Shown piece by piece: positions 23,885 to 63,422 of a stretch of DNA of 64,000 nt (positions are counted from its first letter, which is position 1; each line of letters begins with the position of its first letter). The stretch is from a virus. Position numbers and translations under genes: made by a program. The stretch is from positions 1-64,000 of IMG/VR virus record IMGVR_UViG_3300021139_001840, one strand, 5' to 3'. A model generated the notes under the pieces. It saw only the letters and a program-made list of their open reading frames with translations, had not been told where the DNA came from and did not search any database.

Positions 23885-23892
23885 ATAACTTT

Positions 23893-41652: not shown

Positions 41653-42071
41653 TGAAAAAAATATTTTATATAATTTTACTATTGAATTGCTTGGTTGGAT
41701 GTGCTGTGTATGATAATTATTTCAAAGCTGGTTATGATAATCAAGAATATGAACATATTGTTGAAATAAGACTGTTGGCCAGACAAGGAGTTCAGATGTG
41801 TGGAAATCCCTATAAAGTAACAAAAAGTAAAACAGCGGAGATTATAAGCCAGATGCTTGATAAAGCTGAATTATTTGAAATTTATGAAGAACATAGGCCA
41901 AAAAATGATTCAGAATATGATGCCGCTGTTAAACTACGCGAAATTATAGAAAGTTTTAATAACCGATATCAAAAAGGATCAGTATCCTATTTTTATTGTA
42001 AAACTAAATTTGAAAGCATAGATTCTAGCGCAGGAGTTATACAATCAGTTATAGGAAATAGACCCAAATGA
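41652..42071 (+). CDS. Lipoprotein
   Basis: Lipobox LVGC. Confidence 0.7.
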   Translation: MKKIFYIILLLNCLVGCAVYDNYFKAGYDNQEYEHIVEIRLLARQGVQMCGNPYKVTKSKTAEIISQMLDKAELFEIYEEHRPKNDSEYDAAVKLREIIESFNNRYQKGSVSYFYCKTKFESIDSSAGVIQSVIGNRPK

Positions 42072-42334
42072 CAATGGATGAAATTAAGCATACTTTGAAT
42101 GCTTTACACACTTGCGGAGATCCAACATTTGAAAGAGCCGCAGAATATATACAACAACTCATACAGCGAATTCAAAGCTCTCAATTAAGTCAACAAGATG
42201 CCGCAGAATTATTGTTAGACGTTCAAAGACAGTTACAAATAGTACAAGATTCTCAAGAATTACACCATAAAGAATCATTGAATACTGCCATCACTAGTTT
42301 ACTATCTATACTGACATTAGGCAGCAACACATAG
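42068..42334 (+). CDS. Hypothetical helical protein
   Basis: ATGA-coupled ORF. Confidence 0.7.
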   Translation: MTMDEIKHTLNALHTCGDPTFERAAEYIQQLIQRIQSSQLSQQDAAELLLDVQRQLQIVQDSQELHHKESLNTAITSLLSILTLGSNT

Positions 42335-42361
42335 TTATAAATACAAGTTACAAAGGATTTT

Positions 42362-42928
42362 ATGGAAAAAGCACAGCACCATAGAAAAAATCGTGATGAA
42401 AATGATTACGTAGATGCGTCAGACGCTTGGATTTATACCAAATGGCGTCCAATGATGGCTTGGATGTATTTGGTAGTTTGTTTATTTGATTTCGTGCTTT
42501 TTCCAATTGGCTGGAGTTTTTTACAAGCTCTAGAACACGGGCAAATAGCCTCTCAATGGCAGCCATTAACATTGCAAGGAGGCGGATTATTTCATATTGC
42601 CATGGGATTAATATTAGGTGTAAGTGCTTATGGCAGAACTAAAGAAAAAATAGCTGGTGTAGCATCTCCGGGGTATTTAAATGATTTCTTTGGTGCTAAC
42701 GCTGGCACCACTTATATTCCGCCAGGACAAGGGCAGGCTAATGTAAACAACACTAACCAGCCACCATATAATAATAGATTTTATCATTCAGACAATCGCT
42801 ATGATCCAGACGAAAATGGTAATTATGTAGCTCCGCCATTATTTGGTACAGCACCCAATAACACAACAAATAGTAAACCTGATTCAACTCCAGCTGGACC
42901 ACCGATCCCCCCGTTCCCAGAAAAATAA
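42362..42928 (+). CDS. Putative holin (GTA 3TM-holin-like) with Pro/Asn-rich tail
   Basis: KWRPMMAWMY...FDF..FP...LG..AYGRTKEK. Confidence 0.7.
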   Translation: MEKAQHHRKNRDENDYVDASDAWIYTKWRPMMAWMYLVVCLFDFVLFPIGWSFLQALEHGQIASQWQPLTLQGGGLFHIAMGLILGVSAYGRTKEKIAGVASPGYLNDFFGANAGTTYIPPGQGQANVNNTNQPPYNNRFYHSDNRYDPDENGNYVAPPLFGTAPNNTTNSKPDSTPAGPPIPPFPEK

Positions 42929-42961: not shown

Positions 42962-43741
42962 ATGTCAGATCATTATCAAACACTAAATGTTCCCCGCGGA
43001 GCAACGCAAGAAGAAATTAAAAAGGCTTATCGCAAATTAGCCGGGCAATATCATCCAGATAAAGGTGGTGATAAAGTAAAGTTTCAGGAAATTCAAGCCG
43101 CATACTCTGTATTAGGTGATGATCAAAAAAGAGCACAATACGATAATCCTGGACAAAATATTCATTTTGAATTTGGCAGTCCCGGAGGTTTTGATTTTAG
43201 TTCCATTTTTAGTATGTTTGGACAGCAAGTTCATCAACAATCACATCGTCAAAGTCATACACGCATGAGTTTGTGGGTAACACTACAAGATGTCGCACAA
43301 GGCGGAAAACGCCCAGTTACTGTTGGTACTAGCCACGGTACTATGAATATTGAAATTGAAATTCCTTTGGGCATTGAAGATGGGGATAATGTTCAGTATC
43401 CAAAATTGGGGCCCGGCGGTACAGATTTAATTGTTAATTTCCGCATACATCCTAATCCTAAATGGGCACGAGCTGGGTTACATTTAACCACTGAACATTC
43501 TATTAGTATTTGGGACTGTATGGTTGGTGGCACAACAGAAATACGTGATATATTAGGCAACCAAATTAATCTTACCATTCCTGCACTTACACAGCCTGGC
43601 AGTTTATTGCGTTTAAAGGGCAGAGGGTTATCATCGCGTCAAGGAATCACAGGTGATTTATTGGTTAGAATTCAAGCCAAAATGCCATCAAATATTAGCA
43701 CAGAATTATCCGAACTTATTAAACAAGAACAAAAAAAATAG
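42962..43741 (+). CDS. DnaJ/CbpA-like J-domain chaperone
   Basis: J domain with HPD; C-terminal DnaJ domain; no zinc finger. Confidence 0.92.
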   Translation: MSDHYQTLNVPRGATQEEIKKAYRKLAGQYHPDKGGDKVKFQEIQAAYSVLGDDQKRAQYDNPGQNIHFEFGSPGGFDFSSIFSMFGQQVHQQSHRQSHTRMSLWVTLQDVAQGGKRPVTVGTSHGTMNIEIEIPLGIEDGDNVQYPKLGPGGTDLIVNFRIHPNPKWARAGLHLTTEHSISIWDCMVGGTTEIRDILGNQINLTIPALTQPGSLLRLKGRGLSSRQGITGDLLVRIQAKMPSNISTELSELIKQEQKK

Positions 43742-43804
43742 CCATAACAGTTGTGTTTGCGACAAAATTGCTATATACTATTACAGTACCAAGCAAAGGA
43801 AAAC

Positions 43805-46084
43805 ATGCAGAATAATAAAGAAATTGAACAAATTGTTGCGCAGGCTGTCAAAATAGCTAAAGATCTTCAACACGAATACGTGTTAACCGAACATGTTTTA
43901 TTGGCGCTAATACGTCATGCTCCATTTCAGACTGTGATGGAAAATTTTGGTATCAATGTCAATATGTTAGACATGGAACTTGATGCTTATTTGCAAAGTT
44001 TAACAAATTTAGTCACTGACAAAAAAGATCACCAGCCTAGAAAAACAAATGCGTTGGAACGCTGTTTTAATCGAGCAATGACACAAGTTCTTTTTACTGG
44101 TCGTCGCTCTATGACTACTGGAGATTTATATCTTGCTATTATGGCCGAAACCAATAGCCATGCTCAATATTTCCTTTTAAAATATGGTGTTAAAAAAGTT
44201 GAGTTTTATGATTATTGGCAACAAAATTATAAACATGATGACATTAAACTTACAGGCACACAAGCGGATGAAATATTAAATGAATACTGTGTAAATTTGA
44301 CTCGTTTGGCAACAGAAGATAGACTAGAGCCAATGATTGGACGCAGTGAAGAATTAGATCAAATGATTACAGCACTGGCAAGGCGTTTTAAAGCCAATGT
44401 ATTAATGGTAGGCGATCCTGGCGTGGGCAAAACTGCTATTGTAGAAGGACTTGCTCAAGAAATTATTGCTAATCGTGTTCCTAAATTCCTTATTGGACAC
44501 GAAGTATGGTCGTTAGAAATTGGATCATTGCTTGCTGGCAGCAAATACCGCGGTGAATTTGAAGAAAAATTTAAACAAGTTATTGGTGCGCTTGAAGCTA
44601 AGAAAAATTGTATTTTGTTTATTGACGAAGCACATACAATGAAAGGTGCTGGTGCTAGTTCACAAAGTACTTTAGACTTTGCCAATATGTTGAAGCCAAG
44701 CATTACTAAAGGCACACTCAAAGTTGTAGCGTCAACAACATGGGAAGAATATTACGAATCATTTGAAAAAGATCGTGCTTTAATGCGTCGTTTCCATCGT
44801 GTGGCTATTGATGAGCCAAGTCCAGAAGTTACGGAACAAATTCTTATTGGATTAAGCCCACGTTTAGAATTATTTCACAATGTTATGATTGAAACAGAAG
44901 CCATTAAAACTGCTGTGGATTTAAGCGGCCGTTATATACATGACCGTAAGAATCCGGATAAGTCAATTGACTTATTAGATGGTGCTTGTGCTCGTGAACG
45001 TGTTAAAGATGCAGGCAATGTGCCTATTACTAAAGATTTAATTATGGCTCAGTTAAGTCGTGTAACTGAAGTGCCAATAGATAGACTACAAAACGAACGT
45101 TCTGCCAGCATAGTAGAGTTAGAAAGCAATATTAAAGAAAAACTATATGGGCAAGACGAAGCAGTAGATTCAGTACTTGAACGTGTCTACATTAACTTTT
45201 CAGGCATTGGCAACGATTCTCGCCCCATTGCTTCATTTTTGTTCTTGGGTCCAACAGGTACTGGTAAAACGGAACTTGCTAAATTGCTGGCCAAGAATTT
45301 AGATATGCAATTATTAAAGTATGACATGAGTGAATATCAAGAAAAACATACTGTTAGCTCATTAATTGGTGCTCCGCCTGGTTATGTAGGATTTGAAGAT
45401 GGCAATGTCGGAGGTGGAAAACTTATTTCGGACATTTCAAAGAATCCATATTCAATTATTTTGTTTGACGAAATTGAAAAAGCACATCCAGATGTTATCA
45501 ACATTATGTTACAAATGCTTGATGAAGCTCGCATTACATCAGCCAATGGAAAAACAGTTAATCTCAAAAATACCATTATCATTATGACATCAAATTTAGG
45601 ATCTCGTGATAATGAAAATAATAATATTGGGTTTGGGCAAGACTTAGAAAAAACTGGATCAGAAGAAAAAGCAATGAAAAACTTCTTCAAGCCTGAACTA
45701 CGCAATCGTATTGACCAAATATGTAAATTCAAAAAACTTGATACATTGGCCATTAAGAAAGTTGTACTTAAATTTGTTGAGCAATTACAAACAAGTTTAA
45801 CTACAAAAAATATCAAACTTAATTTATCCGAATCAGTTATTGACATGTTAGCTGAAAAAGGATATGACAGTAAAATGGGGGCTCGTCCTTTGAATCGCAA
45901 AATTGATGAACTTATTCGTGTACCATTAAGTAAGAAAATTTTATTCGAACGGTTAACTGACTGTGTAATTAATGCTATAATGGTAGATGATAAAATTGAT
46001 TTTACAATTATACCAACAACTACATTTCCAGCTTTAGATAGTTCCGGAATAATTGTGCTGAATAATGAATCCCCTAACATTTAA
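43805..46084 (+). CDS. clpA: ClpA-like Hsp100 ATPase
   Basis: Clp N-domain; GDPGVGKT and GPTGTGKT; IGAPPGYVG; IGF loop; MGARPL; no ClpB middle domain. Confidence 0.92.
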   Translation: MQNNKEIEQIVAQAVKIAKDLQHEYVLTEHVLLALIRHAPFQTVMENFGINVNMLDMELDAYLQSLTNLVTDKKDHQPRKTNALERCFNRAMTQVLFTGRRSMTTGDLYLAIMAETNSHAQYFLLKYGVKKVEFYDYWQQNYKHDDIKLTGTQADEILNEYCVNLTRLATEDRLEPMIGRSEELDQMITALARRFKANVLMVGDPGVGKTAIVEGLAQEIIANRVPKFLIGHEVWSLEIGSLLAGSKYRGEFEEKFKQVIGALEAKKNCILFIDEAHTMKGAGASSQSTLDFANMLKPSITKGTLKVVASTTWEEYYESFEKDRALMRRFHRVAIDEPSPEVTEQILIGLSPRLELFHNVMIETEAIKTAVDLSGRYIHDRKNPDKSIDLLDGACARERVKDAGNVPITKDLIMAQLSRVTEVPIDRLQNERSASIVELESNIKEKLYGQDEAVDSVLERVYINFSGIGNDSRPIASFLFLGPTGTGKTELAKLLAKNLDMQLLKYDMSEYQEKHTVSSLIGAPPGYVGFEDGNVGGGKLISDISKNPYSIILFDEIEKAHPDVINIMLQMLDEARITSANGKTVNLKNTIIIMTSNLGSRDNENNNIGFGQDLEKTGSEEKAMKNFFKPELRNRIDQICKFKKLDTLAIKKVVLKFVEQLQTSLTTKNIKLNLSESVIDMLAEKGYDSKMGARPLNRKIDELIRVPLSKKILFERLTDCVINAIMVDDKIDFTIIPTTTFPALDSSGIIVLNNESPNI

Positions 46085-47154: not shown

Positions 47155-47167
47155 GCTAAATATTACA

Positions 47168-47992
47168 ATGCGTACTATTGTAATTTACCCCGGTCGTTAT
47201 CAACCCCCACACAAAGGTCATAAATCTTCTTATGATTATTTGACAAAAAAGTTTGGTGAAAATAACGTTTTTGTAGCCACGTCAGATGTTGTTGCTCCAA
47301 TGACTAGCCCTTTTAGTTATCCAGATAAAGTAGAAATGCTTGCCAAATTGGGAATTCCAGCTAGTCACATTGTGCAAGTTCGGAACCCATATCAAGCGCA
47401 GGAAATTACACGTGATATTTCTAATCCTGAAGATACAGCATTGGTATTTGCTGTATCTGAAAAAGATATGACTGATGAAAAGCCACGTTTTACGTTTGGA
47501 GTGAAGAAAAACGGTGAGCCATCTTACATGCAACCATATCCAGAAAATGGTAAAAAATTGCAACCATTAACTAAACACGGTTATGTTATGGTAACTCCGA
47601 CTACTACATTTAAAGTTAAAGGAAAAGACGCCAATTCTGCTACAGCAATACGCAAACTGTATATAGATGGAAATGACAATGACCGTAAACAAATTATCCA
47701 TGATTTATATGGTGTCGATGATTCAGCAATTAAAGATATTTTTGACAAGAAATTAGGCGTAGCTAAAAAGACTAAAGAAGTAGTATTACAACCGCCTCCA
47801 CTTGATGCCAATGTATTAGATACCCCGGCGCCATTGCAACGTGAAAATAAAAAATACCAAGCAAAAAAAGCACGTTTATTAGAATCAACTATACTAGCTG
47901 AACGTAAAGCTGCACATTGTTATCGTTCCTATGACGAAGATTTAATACCTAATTACATAGACGAAAAAACAGGCAGAAAATTTTACCGGTGA
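47168..47992 (+). CDS. Cytidylyltransferase-like (HxGH) nucleotidyltransferase
   Basis: YPGRYQPPHKGH...SPF...SATAIR. Confidence 0.8.
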   Translation: MRTIVIYPGRYQPPHKGHKSSYDYLTKKFGENNVFVATSDVVAPMTSPFSYPDKVEMLAKLGIPASHIVQVRNPYQAQEITRDISNPEDTALVFAVSEKDMTDEKPRFTFGVKKNGEPSYMQPYPENGKKLQPLTKHGYVMVTPTTTFKVKGKDANSATAIRKLYIDGNDNDRKQIIHDLYGVDDSAIKDIFDKKLGVAKKTKEVVLQPPPLDANVLDTPAPLQRENKKYQAKKARLLESTILAERKAAHCYRSYDEDLIPNYIDEKTGRKFYR

Positions 47993-49019: not shown

Positions 49020-49058
49020 AAAGCCGCTATCAGCAATGTTAGCGGTTTTGTTTTTTTG
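49020..49058 (+). terminator. Intrinsic terminator
   Basis: AAAGCCGCTA...TAGCGGTTTT plus T run. Confidence 0.7.
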
Positions 49059-49072
49059 CACTAAATATATTA

Positions 49073-50815
49073 ATGAACATTCAAGAACTTAAATCTTATA
49101 ATCTAGCCGATGCAGTAAAGTTTCATGACCATCTTAATCCTTTATTGTGGGATAGGCAAGAACATTTACACCCCGAAATAAAGGATCAATTATTAGCCAT
49201 TGCCGCTGATTTTAGCGAATTTTTGGGAGTTAAAGATTTAGAACTTAAAGACATAACAATATCTGGTAGCAATGCCGCTTATTCTTATACGCCACACTCA
49301 GACATAGATTTACACTTAATTGTTGATTTATCCAATGAAGCTAATAACGAAGTTTATCGCGAGTTATTTGATGCTAAGAAATTTATATATAATAGCGAAA
49401 ATAAAATTACCATAAAAGGTATTCCAGTTGAGTTATATGTACAAGATGCTGGACAGGCGCATCATAGTCAAGGAATTTATAGTATTTTAAATAATAATTG
49501 GATACAAGTACCTCGTAGAAAACATGCTGACATAGATGACATGAGTGTTCGTAGCAAATATCGAGATTTAAGCAAACGTATTCGAGAAGCTATCAAAACT
49601 AATTCTACAGAAAAAATGTCCGAGGTTATGGATAAAATAAGAGCTTTGCGTCAAACTGGTCTTGCTGAACATGGAGAATTTGGTGCTGAAAATTTAGCAT
49701 TCAAACTGCTCCGCAATAAAGGTGATTTAGAAAAATTATCCAAAGCTCGTAAAGCAGCAAAAAGTCAAGAATTAAGTTTAAAAGAACGCGAACGTACGCC
49801 TACCCCAGTTGTATATGGATATAAATCTGATCGAGATTACATTGATGAAGTAGGTATTACTCCTGATGGTACTGATCCTAGCACTTGTGAATTTACCAAT
49901 GAAGGACAATTAAACGAAGTAGGTATTACGCCTGATGGTACTGATCCTAGCACTTGTGAATTTACCAATGAAAATGATAATAATCAATCAGAAACAAATA
50001 TCATTGATGACTTTGTAAAATTTTGTATTGACAAATTAAAATTAGATAATCCTCCTAAATTAAGATTACGCCGAGATCCAACATGGTCACAACGCAATAA
50101 AACATTTGGAAGATTTAATCCTCAAACAGGTGAGTTAGAGGTGGCGGTAGGATCTAGACATATTATGGATACTCTTCGTACCCTGGCACACGAACTTACA
50201 CACCAACACCAGCACGAAACTATCGATATGCCAGATACAGCAGGAGAAACTGGAAGCGAGTTTGAAAATGAAGCTAATGCTCGCGCTGGCATAATTATGC
50301 GCGACTATGGTAGTATGCATCCTGAATTGTTTACTGACAATATTATTGACGAAGGATACGGAGCCATTACACCTGCTGGCGAAAAAATTGTTAAATGGCA
50401 ACAAGATAAACTTGCTGGAAAAGAATTTGCCATTCAAGGTTATAGAATTAAATTTACTGATAAAGGTCTTTTGATTTTTAAAGGTGCTGATTTAATTTTT
50501 AAAAAACCCGGAGATTATTCCAATCCTACTAATTTGGATATGACCAAGGCTAGGCGATATATTACTAATTTGTCTAGAAATTGGAAACCAGATCCTATAG
50601 TAAATGAAGCTACTGGCTATATCCCCACTGCCGCAGAAGCACATGATCCACGTTTTGAAATGGCACTTACTGTAGATATACGCCCAGGTGCGCTTGGCAA
50701 AAATGCCAATAAGTTATTATTAGATACTGATAGCCAAGGTCGTCCACAAGAACTACGTCCAGATGGCATAGTACATCGTATGATGGAAGAATTAGAATTG
50801 TTTAAAAGGAATTAA
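49073..50815 (+). CDS. Multidomain protein: Pol-beta-type nucleotidyltransferase, HExxH metallopeptidase-like domain and small modules
   Basis: SGSNAAYSYTPHSDIDLH...VELYVQ; LAHELTH...ENEANA. Confidence 0.8.
   Translation: MNIQELKSYNLADAVKFHDHLNPLLWDRQEHLHPEIKDQLLAIAADFSEFLGVKDLELKDITISGSNAAYSYTPHSDIDLHLIVDLSNEANNEVYRELFDAKKFIYNSENKITIKGIPVELYVQDAGQAHHSQGIYSILNNNWIQVPRRKHADIDDMSVRSKYRDLSKRIREAIKTNSTEKMSEVMDKIRALRQTGLAEHGEFGAENLAFKLLRNKGDLEKLSKARKAAKSQELSLKERERTPTPVVYGYKSDRDYIDEVGITPDGTDPSTCEFTNEGQLNEVGITPDGTDPSTCEFTNENDNNQSETNIIDDFVKFCIDKLKLDNPPKLRLRRDPTWSQRNKTFGRFNPQTGELEVAVGSRHIMDTLRTLAHELTHQHQHETIDMPDTAGETGSEFENEANARAGIIMRDYGSMHPELFTDNIIDEGYGAITPAGEKIVKWQQDKLAGKEFAIQGYRIKFTDKGLLIFKGADLIFKKPGDYSNPTNLDMTKARRYITNLSRNWKPDPIVNEATGYIPTAAEAHDPRFEMALTVDIRPGALGKNANKLLLDTDSQGRPQELRPDGIVHRMMEELELFKRN
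49847..49972 (+). repeat. 57-bp direct repeat x2 (69-bp period)
   Basis: EVGITPDGTDPSTCEFTNE twice, one synonymous mismatch. Confidence 0.95.
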
Positions 50816-50817
50816 CA

Positions 50818-52158
50818 ATGAAAGCTCGTGAATTTATTATCGAATCTGCACAGACAACACTAGGTGGATTTAAAGTCACTCCGTTACATATTGAAGATCA
50901 AGGTGTTGAAGAATCTGACATTAGTGGGTTATTAGCAGCCGGCCAATTTAATAAACAATTTAGAATTACAGCAAATATATACGGTGTCATAAAACACTTT
51001 AAGGTCAAAGCTCAGAGCGCACGAATCGCACAACATAAAGTTGAGATTCACCACCCCGGGGCTAAAATTTTAAATGTAGAAGAAATTACAAATGAAGCTA
51101 TTGGGTTAAATGCTCCACATCGCCGAATGAGTCGCGATGAGTTACAAGGTTATACCGATCGTATTAAAACTGGTACTAAGACAAAGAAAGATAGATTTGC
51201 TCCAATCATACACGGTAGCAATATCAAAGCAATTACTAAAGATGACGAAGGTACCGAATGGGATTTAGATGATTTAGCCCGACAAATCACTACCCGCCCT
51301 CGTTCATTATTAGGCACTAATGCTAAAATGAGTAAGAGTGCTACAGAAGGCGAAATTGTTTATGACTTAACATTGCCAGCATTAAGCGGTGTTGTTGTGG
51401 ACGAGGAAACAGGCGATTTTGTAGAAATTACTACTTGCCCTGGTGCTGGTGGTTGTCAATTATTTTGTTACGCTCGTAAAGGTGGATATGTAATGTTCCC
51501 TGCTAGTAGTATGTCAGCTGCACAAGCATTAAACTTTTTAGTCAATGACCCTGCTGGATATATGGCCATGGTTAACAAAGAAATACAAGGTCTTAAAGGC
51601 AAAGCAGACAAGCATGGTATTAGATTAGTTGTACGCTGGCATGATGCTGGAGATTTCTTTAGTAAAGAATATTTAGATCTAGCATTTAACGTTGCTCGTA
51701 CTAATCCAGATGTAAAATTTTATGCTTATACAAAAATAGCCGCGGCTGCGACTGCCAACAAACCAGATAATTTTATTGTTAACTTTAGTTCGGGAAGTAA
51801 ACGCGGTGAAGAAAAGCAAATTGAACTACACAAAGCTCAAGGAAACGCAGTGAAAGATGCTGTAACATTACCCAAAGACTTGTTCCGCACATTGTTTGTT
51901 ACGGATGCTAAAGGCAAATATGTTAAAGATACCAAAGGTCGTACACAAGTTAAAAGTCCTGAAGCATGGGAAGAATTTAAAAAAATGCTGGCCACTAGGT
52001 ATAAAATTGATCCAGCATCAATTATCACATACGATCAAATGTTAACAATTCCTGAAGGCCCTCAACCTAAGTGGAATGTGGTTATATTTCCAGCAGGACA
52101 CGGAGACCGTGCTGCCAACAGATTGGATGTAATTAACAGTTTTTTAATGTTCCACTAA
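50818..52158 (+). CDS. Gp88-like (radical-SAM-like Cys motif) protein with N-terminal modules
   Basis: TCPGAGGCQLFCYA, VRWHDAGDFFS, FYAYTK. Confidence 0.7.
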   Translation: MKAREFIIESAQTTLGGFKVTPLHIEDQGVEESDISGLLAAGQFNKQFRITANIYGVIKHFKVKAQSARIAQHKVEIHHPGAKILNVEEITNEAIGLNAPHRRMSRDELQGYTDRIKTGTKTKKDRFAPIIHGSNIKAITKDDEGTEWDLDDLARQITTRPRSLLGTNAKMSKSATEGEIVYDLTLPALSGVVVDEETGDFVEITTCPGAGGCQLFCYARKGGYVMFPASSMSAAQALNFLVNDPAGYMAMVNKEIQGLKGKADKHGIRLVVRWHDAGDFFSKEYLDLAFNVARTNPDVKFYAYTKIAAAATANKPDNFIVNFSSGSKRGEEKQIELHKAQGNAVKDAVTLPKDLFRTLFVTDAKGKYVKDTKGRTQVKSPEAWEEFKKMLATRYKIDPASIITYDQMLTIPEGPQPKWNVVIFPAGHGDRAANRLDVINSFLMFH

Positions 52159-52159
52159 A

Positions 52160-53035
52160 ATGATTTTAAACGATTTTATCCAACCTAAACTAAAGTTTAG
52201 TCGTGAAAAACTAGACGCAGTTCTTGTTGAGCTTTGCGATATGGTTATCGAAGGTCAACAAGATAATCCAGACTTTTATGGTATGGTAGCTGCCGCGGTA
52301 TTAGATCCTCGAGGTAGATTAGTCACTGGTGTAAATTATCTATATGGAAATTCAAGAATCCATGCTGAACGAGCAGCCATAGACAAGTATGAAGAAGAGT
52401 ATGGAGAATTGCCAAAAGGCAGTATTGTAATTACTACACTGAGCCCATGCTGTGAAGATACTGGCGATAATCGCTATGGTGTTAGCTGTACAGATTTATT
52501 AAATGAAAAACATGTCAAATTAGCCTATTGTGGGTATCAAGATCCCACACAGGACAGTAAAAATAGTTTTATAGTTATTGTCACTGAAAATGAAAAATTA
52601 AAATCACTCTGTAAAAAATTTGCTGATACATTTTTGGACAAAGGCATTACTGAAAGTGCTGAATCAAGTCGTGCCCAACAGTTTATTGACAGCGTATATA
52701 GTCAGTATCCAGATTGGCCTTATGGCCAAGCAGATAAAGTTATGGTATGGGGTGAGGGCGAAGATCAACAATTTGCCGCGTTCAAACTTAAACCTGGAAC
52801 GGCACCTGACACAGTAGAAATAGATTGGATTATGGCTGGCCCCGAACAGCGCAAAGGCGTTGGTAGTCGCGCTATTAAAGAATTACAGCGACAAGCAAAA
52901 GAGGCCGGTATCAAATTAACATTATACCCTTGGGCTAAAGGCAATGTAAGTCAAGCATCACTGACTAGGTTATACAAACGTCATGGATTTAAACCTGTCG
53001 CAAAAGGTGCTAAGCCAATGCGCTGGAACTGCTAA
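52160..53035 (+). CDS. Zn-dependent deaminase (CDA/RibD-like) fused to GNAT acetyltransferase
   Basis: HAE...TLSPC...C; QRKGVGS...LYKRHGF. Confidence 0.8.
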   Translation: MILNDFIQPKLKFSREKLDAVLVELCDMVIEGQQDNPDFYGMVAAAVLDPRGRLVTGVNYLYGNSRIHAERAAIDKYEEEYGELPKGSIVITTLSPCCEDTGDNRYGVSCTDLLNEKHVKLAYCGYQDPTQDSKNSFIVIVTENEKLKSLCKKFADTFLDKGITESAESSRAQQFIDSVYSQYPDWPYGQADKVMVWGEGEDQQFAAFKLKPGTAPDTVEIDWIMAGPEQRKGVGSRAIKELQRQAKEAGIKLTLYPWAKGNVSQASLTRLYKRHGFKPVAKGAKPMRWNC

Positions 53036-53638
53036 ATGAGATTTTTTGAAATAGCCCGCATACCAAAAAGCCAATTAGATGGGTGGGGCGATGCAGATAC
53101 CATAACCCCACAGCAAGAACCTGTAGGTTCAAAACCCTTGCCAGGTGGTAGTGGATACAAATATCACGTAAATCGCAAAGGCAACGATAATATAGAAATT
53201 ACTTTGTATGACAAAGGAGAAATTATTGCCGAATTAGATTTAGAAGAATTAGGAGCTCCCATTCCACTTTGGCGAGTTGAAACTGTTGTTGCTACTCCCG
53301 AATATCAAGGTCGAGGCTTAGGTATGGCATTATATGGTATAGCATTAAGTATATTAAAATTAACTCTAGTAGCAGGCGAAACACAAACTCAACACGGTGC
53401 TCGCCAATGGCTTAAACTAAGTCAGATACCCGGTGTAGAAGTTATGGGTATGAAAACTGCTCCTAAAAAAGATTATAACCCTGGACCAGATAATCAAGTA
53501 TTATGGTCGGGACCTGAATACCATACATATACTTTCCCTGTAGCACAAGGATCTAAATCAATGAAAAGTGCCCAGCGCGGTAATGGAATATATAATTCAG
53601 CTGGCGCATCTATGATTGCCAAATGGACTGGCAAATAA
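53036..53638 (+). CDS. GNAT acetyltransferase
   Basis: PEYQGRGLGMALY...QTQHGARQW. Confidence 0.8.
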   Translation: MRFFEIARIPKSQLDGWGDADTITPQQEPVGSKPLPGGSGYKYHVNRKGNDNIEITLYDKGEIIAELDLEELGAPIPLWRVETVVATPEYQGRGLGMALYGIALSILKLTLVAGETQTQHGARQWLKLSQIPGVEVMGMKTAPKKDYNPGPDNQVLWSGPEYHTYTFPVAQGSKSMKSAQRGNGIYNSAGASMIAKWTGK

Positions 53639-53667
53639 TACTAAAAATATAATACGCTAAATACAGT

Positions 53668-53955
53668 ATGACAAAACAATTTGTTCGCATACTGAGTAAT
53701 ATTGACTGTGATTGGGAAGGTTTATCTCCCACATACAGACTATATGTTAACGATGAGTTATTTTCTGAACGTACTTGGCGCTGGACCGATAAAGTTTTAC
53801 AGGAAAATTTACAAGTTGAGGCAGAACCTGGAATTTATGAATTAAAATATGAGCTGGTACCTCCTCATTTAGCCACTTTTAAAGTGGGCAGTTTATCTGT
53901 AGCTTATGGGCCAGCTGAGATCGTCGACAACACACATTTTAGGATTACAGCATGA
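53668..53955 (+). CDS. Hypothetical late protein
   Basis: TAAATA 4 nt before ATG; YRLYVNDELFSERTW. Confidence 0.7.
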   Translation: MTKQFVRILSNIDCDWEGLSPTYRLYVNDELFSERTWRWTDKVLQENLQVEAEPGIYELKYELVPPHLATFKVGSLSVAYGPAEIVDNTHFRITA

Positions 53956-54158
53956 GATTACATGAATTTGTTAATTTGCAAGAAGAGGCATCAGTTGGGG
54001 CAACTGCTAGCGGCAGTGTTGCCACTGTAGCAATGCCGCTAGGCGCTGTACAAAGAAGAATACCAGCAGATTCATTTTTTATCGGAGTTGAAACTATAGA
54101 TTCTACTCCTAATACTCCTAAAGAGTATAAAACATATAAGGAAAAATCTAAAGTTTAA
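53952..54158 (+). CDS. Small protein with capsid-targeting-like N-terminus
   Basis: MRLHEFVNLQEE-ASVGATASGSVA. Confidence 0.65.
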   Translation: MRLHEFVNLQEEASVGATASGSVATVAMPLGAVQRRIPADSFFIGVETIDSTPNTPKEYKTYKEKSKV

Positions 54159-54534
54159 CCAATTTATTTCTTGATTTATTTCTTTGTATTGAACCAACAC
54201 CACGATAATACCCCTCAGGGCATCTATCTGATTTAACACTATCTCTTCCTTTAACGCCGCCCGGCCCTCCCCCTGTTTCAGGTATACGATTTGCCCAATT
54301 ATTGCTTTCGGCAACATTCCATAATTTGCTGTAGTATCTTCCAGCAGATTTCATTTCTTCTTTATTATCAGTTTCTAATAAAATTTCGGTATCGACGTCA
54401 TAACCATAATCTTGTATATGCAAAGTCCAATCAACACCCGAACCTTCATATTTAAATGGATTTTTAGATGGTTGACCTAAATATTGTAACCCTGTTATTC
54501 TGCGAGTCTTTTTGTAGAGATAGTAAATACTCAT
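54148..54534 (-). mobile_element. Short, possibly degenerate GIY-YIG endonuclease
   Basis: LYKKTRRITGLQYLGQ...YEGSG..W..H...WAN; clearly related to the 22764 protein but without the NUMOD3-like region. Confidence 0.8.
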
Positions 54535-54601
54535 GCTGATTGCTCCTTTAAAGCATTAGGGTAGTTGGGGATTACAGTCCCGCGAACTACACTTCTATTT
54601 A
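54535..54601 (-). ncRNA. Structured 5' leader, copy 2
   Basis: TAAATA, then GUAGUU-CGC-GGGA-CUGUAA-UCCC-C-AACUAC, then CUAAUGCUUUAAAGGAGCAAUCAGC. Confidence 0.75.
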
Positions 54602-54643
54602 GTTAATTTAACTAAATAATAGATAATATATAAAGGATTTATA

Positions 54644-55084
54644 ATGCTTGCTGAATTATTAAAAGTGCTACTTGCTTCTACATTTACTTATTACCTTAAA
54701 GCACACTTTTTTCATTGGTCAGTAGAAGGCAAAGACTTCTATCAATATCACAAATTCCTACAAAAAATCTACGAAGATGCTTACGGGGCTGTAGATACTA
54801 TTGCGGAATTTATTCGCACACTAGACGAATATGCCCCGGGAAGCCTAACTCGTTATCAAGAACTATCACGTATTCAAGATCAAACTAAAGTGCCAAGAGC
54901 ACAACTAATGATAGAAGAGTTATTGCATGACTCACATATTATGATTGAACTTCTCAATGAATGTTTTGCTGCTGCCACAGCAGAAAATAAACAAGACATC
55001 GCAAATTTTATTGCTGAAAGATTAACTGCTACTAATAAGTATATCTGGATGCTATCAAGTTTTTTAAAAGAATCTAGAGAGTGA
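54644..55084 (+). CDS. dps: Dps family ferritin-like protein
   Basis: KAHFFHWSVEG.DFYQYH...D.IAE.IR.L...K..WML. Confidence 0.92.
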   Translation: MLAELLKVLLASTFTYYLKAHFFHWSVEGKDFYQYHKFLQKIYEDAYGAVDTIAEFIRTLDEYAPGSLTRYQELSRIQDQTKVPRAQLMIEELLHDSHIMIELLNECFAAATAENKQDIANFIAERLTATNKYIWMLSSFLKESRE

Positions 55085-55085
55085 T

Positions 55086-56315
55086 ATGGATAATGAATTT
55101 TACAGCATAGTAGAAAAATTAGCTATTCTTGAAGGACGTATTGCTCCCAAGGATAAAGAAACATTGTCTGCGGCAAAACAAAAGAAGCCAGCACTTTTTA
55201 ATAATTTAAAAAAAGCTGATGAAAATGTTATACCTGATGTTGGCGGCGTTCCTGTTGCTGAAGCTAATATGGAAGAAGATGTAGTATCCAAAGTAAAAGC
55301 ATCACTAGCTGATTATTTAAAATCTGCCGAAGAAGAATTAAAACAAGATTCAGATTTAATCAAAAAGAAAAAACAAGATTTAGATCTAAAGAAAAAAGAA
55401 TTAAAGGATTTAGACTTACAACAAAAAGCTCATCAAGAAGTTGACGAAGCTGATGAAGACGATGAAGACGATGAAGAAGGTGATGACGATTTATTCTATG
55501 TTGTTTTACATGACCGCGATGATGACTCAACATTTGTTGGCGAAATTTATAAGCAAGATGGCCGTTGGCGCGAAGGCAATGTCAGTGGAAATCCTCCATA
55601 TAATTGGGGTGGATCACACACTTATATGAGTTATTTGACACCTCAAGATATCTGGCAACATATTCAAAATGATTTCCGTCGCGGGTTTGATATTGCTGGC
55701 CCATTTAGCGACCAGCAAAAAGCATTAGACTACGCAGAATATGAATTTGGAACTGAAGAATTAGACGAAGACCACAGAAAACTTGAAGTAGGCGACCGCG
55801 TTATGGTTATGGGACCAAATCATTATCAAGGTGAATTTGCTAAGGTTGAAGAATTTAGTCCGTCAGGTAAATTTGTTGTAGTAAAATTTGACAATGGCGA
55901 TGAAGCAAGTATGCATTTATCAGATGTTGAATTTCACAATGATCAAGAAGATGTCGAAGATTGGGAAGAAGAATTGGATGAAAACCCAACAGAAGCTCCT
56001 CCGCAATCAGCTTCAGGTGGTGGAGGGAATCCCACATACGCAGAAAGTACTACAGCGCCAGTAAAAACAGTTCATGTACCAGTGGAATGTGGCGATACTG
56101 CTATTGGCGGAGCAGGTGGAGCAGGCGGTGGCACACTATTAGTTGAACTACATGGTGATGAACGTGATGGATTTTGTATTAAACGTGCTGGACGAGAATT
56201 ACCAACAAGATTTAAAACATTAGCAGAAGCTGAATTAGCATTAGAAATGTATGTAGCGCATCGTAAGACCAAACACGATGCTGAACAATCTACTGATTAT
56301 CTTGAAGAAAAATAA
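55086..56315 (+). CDS. Acidic modular protein with KOW/SH3-like module; possible internal head protein
   Basis: Very D/E-rich; LEVGDRVMVMGP module bounded by EELDE sites. Confidence 0.7.
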   Translation: MDNEFYSIVEKLAILEGRIAPKDKETLSAAKQKKPALFNNLKKADENVIPDVGGVPVAEANMEEDVVSKVKASLADYLKSAEEELKQDSDLIKKKKQDLDLKKKELKDLDLQQKAHQEVDEADEDDEDDEEGDDDLFYVVLHDRDDDSTFVGEIYKQDGRWREGNVSGNPPYNWGGSHTYMSYLTPQDIWQHIQNDFRRGFDIAGPFSDQQKALDYAEYEFGTEELDEDHRKLEVGDRVMVMGPNHYQGEFAKVEEFSPSGKFVVVKFDNGDEASMHLSDVEFHNDQEDVEDWEEELDENPTEAPPQSASGGGGNPTYAESTTAPVKTVHVPVECGDTAIGGAGGAGGGTLLVELHGDERDGFCIKRAGRELPTRFKTLAEAELALEMYVAHRKTKHDAEQSTDYLEEK

Positions 56316-56317
56316 AC

Positions 56318-58231
56318 ATGAATATATTTGATTTGTTCGAAGGCGACTCTGCTCGCGATAAATGGAATAAAGAATCCGCCAAACGTGATGCGGCCGCTAA
56401 AAAGCGTGAAGAAGAAATGACAGCACGACATAATCGAGGCAAAGAAGATATGTCAGGCGCAATTGATCGTTTAGAAAAACATTTAAATACTCCTGTTAAA
56501 GAACATGATATGTCGGAAGGCTGGAGTGACGCGATTGTTAGTCAAAGAACCGGCCGACCACGCACACCCTACTCAGTGTATATCAAAGGTAAGAAGTGGC
56601 GAGATTTTGAAAACGAAGATCATGCAGAAGCTGTAGCAAATAAATTACGAGCCAAATTCAAAGCTGACGGTCGTGACGCCAGTGTTATTACTATTGCCCC
56701 TACTGACTATGATAAAGATATAGTAAAAAAAGAAGCAGCAGTAAACGACGTAAACTTTGGTCATACAGTAACTAAAGGTGCTTGGATTGTACACCAGGAT
56801 GGCAAGAAACCAATTAGATTTAAGACACACATCGGCGCTAAAAAATATGCTGAAAAAAACGGCGGCAAAGTTTACTCAAGTGAGTTCTACGCAGACAAGA
56901 TTCAATCACAGGTTGATGAGCATGGTGGTGGTGTAAACGCTATGAATAAATATATTTCATGGCGCAATAGTGCTAACAAAGAACGTGGAATCACAAAATA
57001 CCAACCTGTAGGCAAACCTGCCGAAAGTTTACGAGAGTTTGCCCTAGGTGATGAAGGTGAGGAAGATACTTTACTCAAGTTTGCTCGCTTATGGTGGAAT
57101 GGTGACGAAGCTACACAAAATAAAGTTGAAGAAGTATTAGCCAAGATGGGTTGGACTATTGGTGAAAATGAATCTGGCGATGAAAACGATGCTTGTTTTG
57201 TTGTTCGCAATGGTGACATGAACGGCGATAGTTATATTGCGTTTGGCAAAGAAGATTTAAATGAAGGTTCAATGTCCACTGCCGCACATCATCATGCTGG
57301 TCCAGAATTTCCAGGATATTGGAAAGGAACTGACTCTGCTAGTTTATCACGTAGACGTATGGTGGGTGATGATATAGAAGAAGGTATTGAAGGTAACATG
57401 ACCGTTAAGTCCTCACCACTATCAGAGCCATTACGTAAACGTAATTTTGTTGCTAAAAATTCTCCCATTACCGGTGCTGGAAAACACACCAATCAGTTAA
57501 AAAAAGCCATGGCAGCAGGCCGCAATGCCAAGCATAAAGCACAAACTATTCCATTCGATGAAAGTATGAATTTTATGGAGTGGGCAGTAAACAATGACTA
57601 TAATTTTGCAAAAAATCCCGCTGTTTACAAAGAAGCCAAAGAAGCATTTAAAAAAAAAATAAACGAAATATCTAAAGATAAAATTGAAAAGTACTACACT
57701 GATGTTATTAAAAAACAAGCTGACAACATTGGTATCCAGCCTAATATGTATAGCAAGCTAGAACCAAAACATCAACGTGGTATTGATAGAGCAAATAATC
57801 GTTTATACAAAAATAATGAAGAGCGCGGACCAATAGCGCCGCACGAAACATATTATGGCGCAATGGATGAAGCCAAAGGTTTAGGTACACAAGTTAAAAT
57901 CATCAAAGGCAGTGATGCGGGCAAAATTGGATGGATTAGAGAAATTAAACTTGGTTCTTTTAAAGGAGCTCCAAAAACTTATTATATTGATCTCGAAGAT
58001 GGTGGGCAAGCAAATAATTTACCTGGCACTGCATTACGCATAATTAAAAACAAAGTAGATGAAAGTTTACAGCCAGGCGAATACTATGTTTGGACCGTAT
58101 ACTTTGATAATGGCGGTAAACAAAATATTAAAGTAACCTCAGATAATTTTGATCCAACAGCATATTATGCCAATCAAAACAAAGCGGTAGTAAATGTAGA
58201 TTATAATTGGGAGAAACATAATGAAATTTAA
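56318..58231 (+). CDS. Modular string of small domains; possible internal head polyprotein
   Basis: MNIFDLFE start; about ten segments separated by hydrophobic-x-E. Confidence 0.7.
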   Translation: MNIFDLFEGDSARDKWNKESAKRDAAAKKREEEMTARHNRGKEDMSGAIDRLEKHLNTPVKEHDMSEGWSDAIVSQRTGRPRTPYSVYIKGKKWRDFENEDHAEAVANKLRAKFKADGRDASVITIAPTDYDKDIVKKEAAVNDVNFGHTVTKGAWIVHQDGKKPIRFKTHIGAKKYAEKNGGKVYSSEFYADKIQSQVDEHGGGVNAMNKYISWRNSANKERGITKYQPVGKPAESLREFALGDEGEEDTLLKFARLWWNGDEATQNKVEEVLAKMGWTIGENESGDENDACFVVRNGDMNGDSYIAFGKEDLNEGSMSTAAHHHAGPEFPGYWKGTDSASLSRRRMVGDDIEEGIEGNMTVKSSPLSEPLRKRNFVAKNSPITGAGKHTNQLKKAMAAGRNAKHKAQTIPFDESMNFMEWAVNNDYNFAKNPAVYKEAKEAFKKKINEISKDKIEKYYTDVIKKQADNIGIQPNMYSKLEPKHQRGIDRANNRLYKNNEERGPIAPHETYYGAMDEAKGLGTQVKIIKGSDAGKIGWIREIKLGSFKGAPKTYYIDLEDGGQANNLPGTALRIIKNKVDESLQPGEYYVWTVYFDNGGKQNIKVTSDNFDPTAYYANQNKAVVNVDYNWEKHNEI

Positions 58232-60764: not shown

Positions 60765-63422
60765 TTGAGTTATGTAGATTGTCTATACGATCGCGAACAT
60801 GATCGTATCCATGTTGTAGAACGTGTCAACGGCGAACGTGTTTACAAAGAATATCCAGCTGATTATATCTTTTACTACAACGATCCGCGTGGTAAATTTA
60901 CTTCAATATATGGCACTCCTGTTGCTCGTTTTTCCAGTCGCAACGCCAAAGAGTTTCGAAAAGAAGTTGCTATCCAACGTGGCAAACAACTTTATGAATC
61001 GGATATCAATCCTATATTCCGTTGTTTAGAAGAAAACTATAAAGGCAAAGATGCTCCTGAGCTTCAAACAGCGTTTTTTGACATTGAAGTAGACTTCCAC
61101 AAAGACAAAGGATTTTCTCCTACCACTGATCCGTTCAACGCCATTACTGCCATTTCAGTTTACCTACAATGGATGAATCAACTGGTTACTTTAGTTGTTC
61201 CGCCCGCACATATGAGTTTGGCAACAGCGCAGGAAGTTGCCGCTGACTTTGAAAATTGTATTGTGTTCGAGCATGAAGCTGATATGCTTAAAACATTCCT
61301 TGACTTAATTGAAGATGCTGATGTTATATCCGGCTGGAATAGTGAAGGATATGACGTGCCATATACTATCAATCGTATTACTAGAATACTAAGCAAAGAC
61401 GACACCCGTAGATTTTGTTTATGGGGCCAATACCCTAAACAACGAGAATTCGAACGCTTTGGCGCCACTAGTACAACTTATGATATTGTTGGTCGTGTAC
61501 ACATGGACTACATGCAATTATATCGCAAATACACATACGAAGAGCGACATAGTTACAGTTTAGATGCTATTGGTGAATATGAATTAAGTGAAAGTAAAAC
61601 AGCATACGAAGGTACGCTAGATCAATTATATAATCAAAATTTTAAAAAGTTTATTGAATATAATAGACAAGATACATTGTTACTTGACAAGTTAGATAAA
61701 AAGTTGCGGTTTATCGAATTAGCAAATGAATTAGCTCACGCCAATACTGTATTACTTCCAACTACAATGGGAGCGGTGGCTGTAACTGAGCAAGCTATTA
61801 TTAACGAAGCACATGAACGTGGGCTTGTTGTGCCAAATCGTAAACAAAGATTAACTGATGATGAAACTGCGGCTGCTGGTGCCTATGTTGCGTATCCCAA
61901 AAAAGGAACACATGAATGGGTAGGTGCTGTAGACATTAACTCTCTATATCCAAGTGCTATCCGCGCACTAAACATGGGAATGGAAACAGTAGTTGGGCAA
62001 CTAAGACCTGTAATGACTGAACGTTATATCGACGAATTAGTATCTAAAGGAAAAACATTTGCCGCGGCTTGGGAAGGTGTATTTGCCAGTTTGGAATATA
62101 CAGCAATCATGGAACAACAGCGTGGCACTGAAATTACTATTGACTGGCAGGACGGGGAACATTCAGTACATTCTGCTTCTGAAATATGGGAAATGATTTT
62201 TAATAGTAATCAACCTTGGATGTTAACAGCCAATGGCACTATCGTTACTTACGAAAAGAAAGGTGTCGTTCCTGGATTATTAGAGCGTTGGTATGCCGAA
62301 CGAAAAGAAATGCAAGAAAAGAAAAAAGAAGCTACCGATCCTAAAGAAATTGCATTTTGGGATAAACGACAACTTGTAAAAAAGATTAACTTGAATAGCC
62401 TATACGGGGCAATTCTTAATCCGCATTGTAGATTTGCGGACAAACGTATTGGACAATCAACCACATTATCTGGACGCAGTATTGCTCGGCATATGGCAGG
62501 TTATATCAACGAATGTATTACCGGCAAGTTTGATCATTTGGGTGATGCTATTGTATATGGCGATACAGACTCGTGTTATTTTAGTGCCTGGCCCGTTCTC
62601 AAAAAAGAAGTTGCGGCAGGCAATATGGAATGGAGCAAAGAAATTTGTATTCAATTATATGATTCAATTGCTGAACAAGTAAATTTATCGTTTCCAGCAT
62701 TTATGGAACAAGCGTTCCACTGCCCTAGAGAAGCTGGTGAATTAATCAAAGCCGGTAGAGAATTAATAGCATCTAACAGTTTGTTCATTACTAAAAAACG
62801 TTATGCTGTATTAATTTATGATTTAGAAAATAAACGTCTTGACATTAATGGGTCACATGGCAAAATTAAAGCTATGGGCTTAGATTTAAAACGAAGCGAT
62901 ACACCAAAAGTTATTCAAGAATTTTTGTATGAAATTTTAGAAAAAGTATTGACAGGTACTACGAGAGATGAAATCGTAGACCGTATTCGAGAATTTAAAT
63001 ATGCGTTTGCTGAGCGTCCAGCCTGGGAAAAAGGAACTCCTAAACGTGTCAACAATTTAACCAAATATGGAAAAGCCGAAGAAGCTGAAGGCAAAGCAAA
63101 TATGCCAGGGCATGTTCGAGCAGCATTGAACTGGAACAATATGCGTCGCATGAACAGCGACAATTATTCTATTGCGGTAGTTGACGGAATGAAAACCATT
63201 GTGTGTAAATTAAAACCCAATCCCATGGGATGGACTAGTATTGGATACCCAACTGACGAACAACGATTACCGGATTGGTTTAAAGAATTACCCTTTGACG
63301 ATGGATTAATGGAAGCTACTATTGTAGATCAAAAAATTGACAATTTATTAAGTGTATTAAACTGGGATTTAGCAAGTGCTACTAACACAGAAAATACATT
63401 CCAAACATTATTCGAGTTCTAA
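60765..63422 (+). CDS. polB: Family B DNA polymerase
   Basis: FDIE, GWNSEGYD, DINSLYPS, KINLNSLYG, YGDTDS, KKRY; TTG start with GGAG SD. Confidence 0.97.
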   Translation: MSYVDCLYDREHDRIHVVERVNGERVYKEYPADYIFYYNDPRGKFTSIYGTPVARFSSRNAKEFRKEVAIQRGKQLYESDINPIFRCLEENYKGKDAPELQTAFFDIEVDFHKDKGFSPTTDPFNAITAISVYLQWMNQLVTLVVPPAHMSLATAQEVAADFENCIVFEHEADMLKTFLDLIEDADVISGWNSEGYDVPYTINRITRILSKDDTRRFCLWGQYPKQREFERFGATSTTYDIVGRVHMDYMQLYRKYTYEERHSYSLDAIGEYELSESKTAYEGTLDQLYNQNFKKFIEYNRQDTLLLDKLDKKLRFIELANELAHANTVLLPTTMGAVAVTEQAIINEAHERGLVVPNRKQRLTDDETAAAGAYVAYPKKGTHEWVGAVDINSLYPSAIRALNMGMETVVGQLRPVMTERYIDELVSKGKTFAAAWEGVFASLEYTAIMEQQRGTEITIDWQDGEHSVHSASEIWEMIFNSNQPWMLTANGTIVTYEKKGVVPGLLERWYAERKEMQEKKKEATDPKEIAFWDKRQLVKKINLNSLYGAILNPHCRFADKRIGQSTTLSGRSIARHMAGYINECITGKFDHLGDAIVYGDTDSCYFSAWPVLKKEVAAGNMEWSKEICIQLYDSIAEQVNLSFPAFMEQAFHCPREAGELIKAGRELIASNSLFITKKRYAVLIYDLENKRLDINGSHGKIKAMGLDLKRSDTPKVIQEFLYEILEKVLTGTTRDEIVDRIREFKYAFAERPAWEKGTPKRVNNLTKYGKAEEAEGKANMPGHVRAALNWNNMRRMNSDNYSIAVVDGMKTIVCKLKPNPMGWTSIGYPTDEQRLPDWFKELPFDDGLMEATIVDQKIDNLLSVLNWDLASATNTENTFQTLFEF

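Follow-up and report, generated by a model that had tools for sequence, protein, structure and literature searches.

In bacteriophage T4, the internal proteins (IPI, IPII, IPIII) and the protein Alt are otherwise unrelated and carry a short leader ending in hydrophobic-x-Glu, the capsid targeting sequence (CTS; MKTYQEFIAE) (PMC9026906, PMC3012670, PMC8442874). The T4 prohead protease gp21 cuts by an L/I-x-E rule (PMC9026906). N-terminal propeptides of packaged proteins of this type measure about 10-19 aa. Here we describe a gene block at positions 49073-58231 of a stretch of 64,000 nt (hereafter the window; positions 1-64,000 of the 96.8-kb IMG/VR viral contig IMGVR_UViG_3300021139_001840), in which leaders of a similar kind and hydrophobic-x-Glu sites occur in modular, multi-enzyme proteins. 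The most economical reading, to which we give an even chance, is that capsid targeting and gp21 processing of the T4 type are joined here to the architecture of polyvalent proteins. With the same balance of confidence, the 49-58 kb block can be read as a locus for cargo, transcribed late, in an uncultured giant phage whose core is of the T4 type.

Polyvalent proteins (Iyer, Burroughs, Anand, de Souza and Aravind, 2017) hold many unrelated effector-type domains per chain in shuffled architectures. Their domains include zincin peptidase, Pol-beta nucleotidyltransferase (NTase), GNAT, lysozyme, ParB and deaminase, and their delivery with the DNA was predicted (PMC5512222). In the ejection and inner-body proteins of phiKZ-like phages (phiKZ, 201phi2-1, SPN3US), a gp21-related protease cuts after Glu in the motif [SAG]-x-E, and propeptides are found on many packaged proteins, with several cuts per substrate (PMC9026906, PMC10052503). 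These cuts remove or fragment the propeptides of one mature protein and are not known to separate several enzymes. In the literature, no paper was found on prohead-protease joints between enzymes of one chain.

The block resembles the T4 system in its candidate leader, in predicted late expression, in diverse and fast-changing candidate cargo, and in the gp21-family protease and gp22-type scaffold found in its closest complete relative. Unlike the single small internal proteins of T4, the candidate cargo is made up of large multi-enzyme chains that have several joints within them, and two of the polyproteins have no convincing leader. The leader core, M-[KR]-x-x-[ED]-[FIL], is one residue shorter than that of T4, and the proteins have no sequence homology to the T4 internal proteins or Alt. 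The likeness to polyvalent proteins, which have 2-15 unrelated conflict-type domains in variable architectures and a zincin-like metallopeptidase hub, is seen in product 49073 (genes and products are named by the window position of the first nucleotide). It comprises an NTase, a peptidase with HELTH at residue 373 and an abylysin/selecase-like fold, and two further modules. Unlike polyvalent proteins, for which release by embedded peptidases was proposed, the joints here carry a prohead-protease motif, also in peptidase-free chains. The NTase family of polyvalent proteins, a minimal firmicute form fused to ArdC-N, is not that of 49073. Compared with the phiKZ-like motif, P3 is hydrophobic (L/I/V) instead of small, and the phage lineages are unrelated. 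In deposited phage genomes, tblastn matches of products 50818 and 49073 were limited to the GP88 and NTase domains, in unrelated phages, and product 56318 gave no match.

Hydrophobic-x-Glu sites at module borders

The AlphaFold2 model of product 49073, based on a 61-sequence alignment, showed folded parts at amino acids (aa) 10-243, 305-421, 434-502 and 516-580, and linkers of low confidence at aa 247-304, 422-439 and 501-515. A preliminary description of this DNA had proposed that domain borders fall on [ILVM]-x-E, and each of the linkers contains at least one of the sites that it quoted (3/3, roughly p = 0.05), the first of them two (IDE 257-259 and LNE 280-282). Several hydrophobic-x-E sites of 49073 sit inside folded helices. 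Among the 61 sequences, E512 was invariant, and E259 and E238 were conserved in at least 90%. All quoted sites exist; the one that departs from the motif is 'ITNE' in 50818, which has Thr at P3 in place of a hydrophobic residue. V87-E88-E89 lies just upstream of it.

Inside the window alone, the placement of sites was marginally non-random; across the family it was clearly non-random and specific for hydrophobic-x-Glu. The VGITPDG repeat had [LIV]-x-E in front in 29/29 distinct contexts. The same held for the C-module A[ST]GYIP...NDPRF in 54 of 56 homologues with very diverse upstream sequence. The GP88 core, A[IL]KL[ND]AP, was preceded by x-E in 72 of 76 distinct contexts, with V, L, I or M at P3 in 61 of the 76. 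For 55086, the joints ILE, VDE and LDE were retained in the orthologue despite differing flanks. Product 56318 has 14 [ILVM]-x-E sites versus 8.8 expected (p = 0.04). Seven of them (DLFE/G, QVDE/H, DLNE/G, DIEE/G, AMDE/A, KVDE/S and DMSE/G, the slash marking the candidate cleavage point) were retained in its 828-aa orthologue with changed P2 and P3 residues.

Breakpoints were then measured in an all-against-all comparison of 187 non-redundant proteins, in which alignment starts within -4 to +1 of a site were counted against shifted controls. Starts fell at hydrophobic-x-E in 26.3% versus 11.6% in the controls, a 2.27-fold excess over boundaries that are not independent events. The corresponding ratios behind a hydrophobic P3 were 1.11 with Asp at P1, 1.20 with Lys and 1.17 with Gln, and they fell below 1 with N, S, T, A or G; polar-x-E gave 1.13, and Arg at P1 no excess. 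The expectation that module gain and loss would coincide with [ILVM]-x-E was thus borne out, and linker composition can hardly account for the specificity for Glu together with a hydrophobic P3.

Module exchange in related loci

The comparison set consisted of ten syntenic loci from viral metagenomes (L-numbered below), the closest relative being G001 (235.8 kb, rated complete), whose proteins are 68-99% identical across the block. In the G001 orthologue of 49073, the module at aa 428-511 is missing, and this indel ends at IDE 425-427 and VNE 510-512. The exchange of cassettes that had been suggested was found directly with the deaminase module, which is free-standing at 52160 in the window and lies within the NTase protein in L010 and L011. 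This module (aa 16-165 of 52160) ends in ITE/S here, LNE/A in G001, MNE/S in L010 and INE/G in L011, and the module that follows differs behind each ending. The 52160 orthologue in G001 has 601 aa, and the NTase protein varies from 441 to 1477 aa. The peptidase/C-module core of 49073 has more than 300 homologues of variable architecture (319-1477 aa), which add deaminase, GH19, amidoligase, ParB, sigma region 4, DUF5661 or GNAT modules.

In L006, L008, L010 and L011, a near-fixed linker, (K/E)QGVAE/G, stands between unrelated modules in up to five copies per protein. This linker was absent from the window, G001 and 80 head-module loci, and could not be connected with a head-protein cleavage site. 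Related polyproteins also contain four internal signal peptides resembling those of twin-arginine translocation (Tat), for example NLSE/IDRRGVLKAIGAGAVATAVPGVAQA, each right after hydrophobic-x-E. They consist of RRxFLK followed by a Gly/Ala-rich stretch and AxA. Such signals could work only after a cut or from an internal start. An N-terminal copy reads MRATEFVTE/DLSRRGFL, and one of the five Tat-like signals (Table 1) precedes a GH19 muramidase.

N-terminal leaders

The pattern ^M...[ED][FLI], drawn up after looking, starts 6 of 11 cluster open reading frames (ORFs) versus 2 of 122 others on the contig (ORFs of at least 60 aa; Fisher p = 1.8e-6). The noted similarity of N-termini in consecutive late genes is therefore real. 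It exists at the protein level only, and no shared nucleotide block was found behind these starts. A stricter rule, ^M.{2,5}[EQ]ΦΦ.E, was derived from five cleaved T4 N-termini (IPIII, gp22, gp24, Alt and gp21). In the window, 50818 alone follows it, 53952 and 56318 fit looser forms, 53036 lacks the Glu, and 49073 and 52160 fail. In related loci, the rule matches 6 of 78 ORFs versus a background of ~4 of 440 (about 1%).

Among 120 GP88-family homologues, nearly all start with M[KR]xx[ED][FIL], mostly followed by x-x-E, and some members have MRFFEF. In the syntenic loci, unrelated families start with MRAKEFVIE, MRATEFVTE, MKINQIIQE, MKYIEIINE or MKSYQIITE. Such starts head a DUF6886 protein, two GH19 muramidases, free-standing zincins, a GNAT-like protein and the family with a TVAMPL box. 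The start of 53036, MRFFEI, is a leader variant without hydrophobic-x-E, and its L008 homologue begins with MRATDFVTE.

Two of the proposed targeting leaders did not hold. In the homologue from Maribacter phage Molly, the counterpart of MNIQELK (49073) lies within the protein, at residues 23-30, and most homologues read MNIEQL or MNINQL at this position, indicating that it belongs to the NTase fold instead of forming a leader that is processed. In MILNDFI of 52160, a hydrophobic-x-E cleavage motif is lacking.

The 68-aa ORF 53952 has the leader and an S-x-x-TVAMPL box in common with 230-384-aa proteins of related loci, the first 30 residues being the same. It ends where a minus-strand ORF resembling a homing endonuclease begins (window 53952-54534). 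ORF 53952 may be a shortened copy of a longer gene of this family, and the remainder of such a gene was searched for in the window and not found. A relationship of the family to the N-arm of gp23/gp24 was considered and set aside since the resemblance was not significant. The start of L010:11913-12671, MKINQIIQE/TTTAGS, resembles that of T4 gp24 (L028:12324-13607), MAKINELLRE/STTTNS, which is suggestive only; gp21 removes the first ten residues of T4 gp24.

Prohead protease, head module and late-like promoter elements

The gp21-like protease predicted to lie elsewhere in the genome was identified in the closest complete relative and not on the contig itself, which is a fragment. In G001 the gene order gp15-17-18-19-20-(small core genes)-21-22-23 is as in T4, with matches to Peptidase_S77 (PF03420, 111 bits), T4_CASP (PF25623, 227 bits) and Gp23 (469 bits). 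The gene for the S77 protease of the relative is at L018:8086-8730, minus strand. In 72 head loci of the clade, the propeptide of the capsid protein is conserved and has a predicted maturation site [LIM]-x-E/[TAS], mostly LNE/T; the expected specificity of the protease is therefore the L/I-x-E rule of T4. The protease of the clade starts with MKLIKEITE/S and the scaffold with MGKFNLSE/A.

TAAATA is the core of the T4 late promoter. It occurs 61 times on the plus strand, and 31 copies are found no more than 60 nt upstream of an ORF start. Copies stand ahead of the units at 46783, 47168, 48038, 49073, 53668, 54644 and 58910, and also of baseplate/tail-fibre, endolysin and holin genes. At 49062-49067 it lies 5 nt before the ATG of 49073, following a terminator-like hairpin, and this CTAAATA is read as a putative T4-late-type promoter starting the 49073-53638 unit. 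Another copy lies 25 nt upstream of 54644. G001 encodes a gp55-type late sigma factor (4e-62). The assumption of the preliminary description that these are late genes fits all of these observations. A scan for sigma-70-type promoters was uninformative (71 sites versus 68.5 expected).

The TAAATA elements fall into two classes of spacing. In one, 18-27 nt separate the element from the ATG and a Shine-Dalgarno sequence is present; in the other, the distance is only 4-8 nt and there is no such sequence. With the latter spacing, leaderless or nearly leaderless late mRNAs would result.

Features of the block and its surroundings

The ORFs starting at 49073, 50818, 52160, 53036, 53952, 55086 and 56318 are co-directional and mostly abut (Table 1); they and six N-termini were found in the sequence as previously listed. 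The earlier domain calls stood for the GP88-like protein, the deaminase and GNAT of 52160, the NTase and the peptidase, and a Pfam search gave no confirmation of the second GNAT, in 53036. The NTase of 49073 gave a weak Pfam score below the cut-off (17.4 bits), but shows the G-S...D-x-D signature, a match to phrog_36119 (2e-47) and a fold like CD-NTases and aminoglycoside NTases (ANT). In its fold, the HELTH region resembles the minigluzincins abylysin, jannalysin and selecase, with certainty or nearly so in the fold search for abylysin and selecase, and H373, E374 and H377 are invariant in homologues of 49073. For 52160, Pfam gave dCMP_cyt_deam_1 at 32.7 bits and GNAT at 25.6 bits.

The GP88-like core contains the motif C-x5-C-x3-C (CPGAGGCQLFC), and its homologues number more than 2600; a fold search with its model gave weak TIM-barrel-like matches and nothing more. 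The C-terminal tail of 55086, DYLEEK (nt 56295-56312), follows the pattern [ST]-x-D-Y-[LI]-[ED]-E-K and is kept in the orthologue. It also ends unrelated NadR-like polyproteins and was found internally once, ahead of a further module (L008:4147-5643, L010:6997-8472, L011:5726-6943 and L006:6708-9005). This tail may be a second address or docking tag.

The contig has no end repeats, and CheckV estimated its completeness at 28%. The family-B DNA polymerase at 60765-63422, downstream of the block, shares 42-50% identity with its counterparts in Sinorhizobium phage Phosso, Agrobacterium phage Atu_ph07, Vibrio phage 2.275.O and the Rak2/PBECO4 group. Judging by this similarity to jumbo phages, the source of the contig is an uncultured giant phage of the T4 superfamily. 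The block had zero nucleotide matches in megablast against deposited phages. The genes for DnaJ and a ClpA-like ATPase (42962-46084) lie directly upstream of the block and are kept in all related loci. The lysis cassette also holds two small lipoprotein-like ORFs (41383 and 41652), and TAAATA precedes its endolysin and holin-like genes.

Table 1. Positions of the features in the block, its surroundings and related loci (window coordinates unless a contig or locus is named; aa, residues of the product; pLDDT, predicted local distance difference test)
Feature	Position	Strand	Description
Product 49073	49073..50815	+	580-aa polyprotein, five parts
49073 part 1	aa 1-243		Pol-beta-type NTase
49073 part 2	aa 244-304		disordered linker with two VGITPDGTDPSTCEFTNE repeats
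49073 part 3	aa 305-421		minigluzincin-like metallopeptidase, HELTH at 373
49073 part 4	aa 428-511		small beta/alpha module
49073 part 5	aa 513-580		conserved C-module A[ST]GYIP...NDPRF
Joint I257-D258-E259/V260	49841..49849	+	YIDE/VGITPDG; low-pLDDT 247-304
Joint L280-N281-E282/V283	49910..49918	+	between two repeats; LDE there in orthologue
Joint I425-D426-E427/G428	50345..50353	+	border of peptidase and extra module; low-pLDDT 422-439
Joint V510-N511-E512/A513	50600..50608	+	before C-module; low-pLDDT 501-515
Product 50818	50818..52158	+	446-aa GP88-like protein; Pfam GP88 122 bits
50818 leader	aa 1-9		MKAREFIIE/S (predicted helix), then TLGGFKVTPL hairpin
50818 disordered stretch	aa 27-43		VEE at 30-32
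50818 inserted domain	aa 46-89		small domain
50818 junction	E93		..VEE-ITNE/A
50818 core	aa 94-446		highly conserved
Product 52160	52160..53035	+	291 aa; deaminase module aa 1-165, GNAT module aa 166-291
52160 joint I163-T164-E165/S166	52646-52654		
Product 53036	53036..53638	+	200-aa GNAT-like protein (QGRGLG motif), start MRFFEI
Product 53668	53668..53955	+	95 aa; kept in closest relative; TAAATA 4 nt 5' of ATG
Product 53952	53952..54158	+	68-aa ORF MRLHEFVNLQEE/ASVGATASGSVATVAMPL
Homing-endonuclease-like ORF	54148-54534	-	interrupts block; N-terminus SIYYLYKK; no Pfam match
Product 54644	54644..55084	+	Dps/ferritin-like, Pfam Ferritin 1.9e-20; no leader, no joints; not claimed as cargo
Product 55086	55086..56315	+	409-aa acidic protein; start MDNEFYSIVEKLAILE/G; weak KOW/Tudor-like middle
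Product 56318	56318..58231	+	637-aa chain of small modules; start MNIFDLFE/G; 14 [ILVM]-x-E sites
Terminator-like hairpin	49024..49067	+	CCGCTA-N10-TAGCGG and T-run, then CTAAATA
TAAATA spacing examples, window	14590-14601, 23882-23893, 47157-47168, 49062-49073, 53658-53668		
TAAATA spacing examples, contig	81225, 86977, 88389, 92915		
Lysis cassette	40298-42928		GH19 endolysin without signal peptide at 40298; holin-like gene at 42362
DnaJ	42962		complete: J domain and C-terminal domain
ClpA-like double-AAA ATPase/unfoldase	43805-46084		759 aa
Cytidylyltransferase-like gene	47168		upstream of block
Conserved gene	48038		follows 47168; upstream of block
QGVAE-linker module chains	L008:12536-14539, L010:12673-15183, L011:12806-14866		
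Internal Tat-like signal	L006:9971-14404		aa 512
Internal Tat-like signal	L006:6708-9005		aa 346
Internal Tat-like signal	L008:12536-14539		aa 322
Internal Tat-like signal	L010:12673-15183		aa 355
N-terminal Tat-like copy	L010:15667-16317		aa 12

Discussion

The products of the block are built of modules and comprise a nucleotidyltransferase, a minigluzincin peptidase, a deaminase, GNAT acetyltransferases, a GP88-like enzyme and chains of small modules. Some bear a candidate leader, short and amphipathic, of the form M-[KR]-x-x-[ED]-[FIL]-(x)-x-E, which has its analogue in the T4 CTS, and their modules are joined by exposed linkers of [LIV]-x-E/small residue. From these data we infer the following course. 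The leader would bring the proteins into the scaffolding core of the prohead, where a gp21-family prohead protease would clip it off and then cut the joints. The freed enzymes would remain in the head and enter the next host along with the DNA, and might act there as effectors. Recombination at or near the joints would create new combinations of modules.

Several observations weigh against this scheme. In the window proteins, [ILVM]-x-E sites are not enriched over chance (54 versus 43.8 in shuffles, z = 1.8), and the rest of the proteome has the same slight excess. Retention of the motif between the two closest genomes, at 15 of 29 sites (52%) versus 35 of 99 controls (35%), was not significant. 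Products 49073 and 52160 have no convincing leader, and the scheme leaves their loading unaccounted for. When the N-termini were scored with BLOSUM62 against those of the clade's protease and core proteins, the cluster was not singled out (ranks 6 and 12 of 133), so the likeness between leaders and head proteins is one of pattern only. The leader and TLGGF hairpin of 50818 could belong to the fold. The GP88-like core is 98.7% identical to its G001 counterpart, compared with 47-89% for neighbouring genes; such extreme conservation is more like that of an essential enzyme, which it probably is, than of changeable cargo. The PF03420 profile had no match on the 96.8-kb contig, a fragment without head genes, and no homologue of the cargo proteins was found in cultured phages by megablast or tblastn against deposited phages. 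Tat signals are awkward on supposed capsid cargo, and two of the four internal ones have a nearby Met as a possible internal start.

The main alternative, which we consider rather unlikely, is that the products are polyvalent-type enzymes of the cytoplasm, cut outside the capsid by the accompanying zincin peptidase or a host protease. The leader might then, with equal doubt, have another purpose, for example to be recognised by the DnaJ/ClpA-like pair or to form the n-region of export signals. A HELTH minigluzincin-like domain is found in every lineage examined, embedded in 49073 and free-standing in L007, L010 and L011, and self-processing by embedded metallopeptidases was proposed for polyvalent proteins by Iyer et al. 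(2017; PMC5512222). In all related loci, the synteny of the cluster includes DnaJ and the ClpA-like ATPase. The Tat-like signals suggest that some modules act in the periplasm of the producing cell, and one tagged GH19 muramidase looks like a normal Tat pre-protein. However, a P1 that is strictly Glu, combined with L/I/V at P3 and a small P1', is known as the signature of T4-type S77 proteases (PMC9026906), whereas zincins usually select a hydrophobic P1', and the same joints occur in polyproteins without any peptidase domain. Moreover, the maturation site of the clade's capsid protein bears the same motif, and late-type promoter elements stand ahead of all units.

Less probable still is that no processing takes place. 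In this case the products would be intact multi-domain late enzymes, hydrophobic-x-Glu a structural habit of helix ends and linkers, and the N-termini a shared short helix. A site count equal to the composition expectation, the sites within folded helices, the demonstrable place of MNIQELK in a fold and the conservation of the GP88 N-terminal element as if structural all agree with this explanation. It leaves unaccounted for the marking of breakpoints by Glu but not Asp, the identical QGVAE/G linkers between unrelated modules, the internal Tat-like signals right after the motif, and the leader common to unrelated families. It is very improbable that the proteins are packaged and cut as assembly or core parts (scaffold-like filler or DNA-condensing proteins), most fragments being expelled at maturation instead of delivered as effectors. 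In T4, gp22, gp67 and gp68 are fragmented and for the most part lost from the head (PMC9026906). Products 55086 and 56318 have an acidic or basic character, low complexity and few modules, and a Dps-like DNA-binding protein lies in the same unit, but the modules are recognisable as enzymes (NTase, peptidase, deaminase, GNAT, GP88) with active-site motifs conserved across hundreds of homologues.

The reading of the block as capsid-targeted, prohead-processed cargo can be extended, tentatively, to a clade of double-stranded DNA phages with a true polyprotein strategy. In such phages the prohead protease may free several enzymes from each capsid-targeted chain, and cutting may switch functions on. 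The minigluzincin could be released from an inhibitory C-terminal module, and in related phages Tat signals could be exposed and the ejected cargo re-exported to the periplasm of the new host.

If the capsid-cargo reading is true, the capsid-targeting principle of T4 reaches from single small internal proteins to exchangeable multi-enzyme cassettes, and the head-maturation protease gains a second role. A leader together with hydrophobic-x-Glu joints would be a simple rule to spot genes of injected proteins in uncultured T4-type phages. The family is large: two of its proteins have over 300 and over 2600 homologues, and metagenomes contain at least 600 capsid genes that are related. The arrangement would also point to a natural way of packing several proteins into phage capsids, and module swapping at the joints would explain how the first-minute arsenal of such phages changes.

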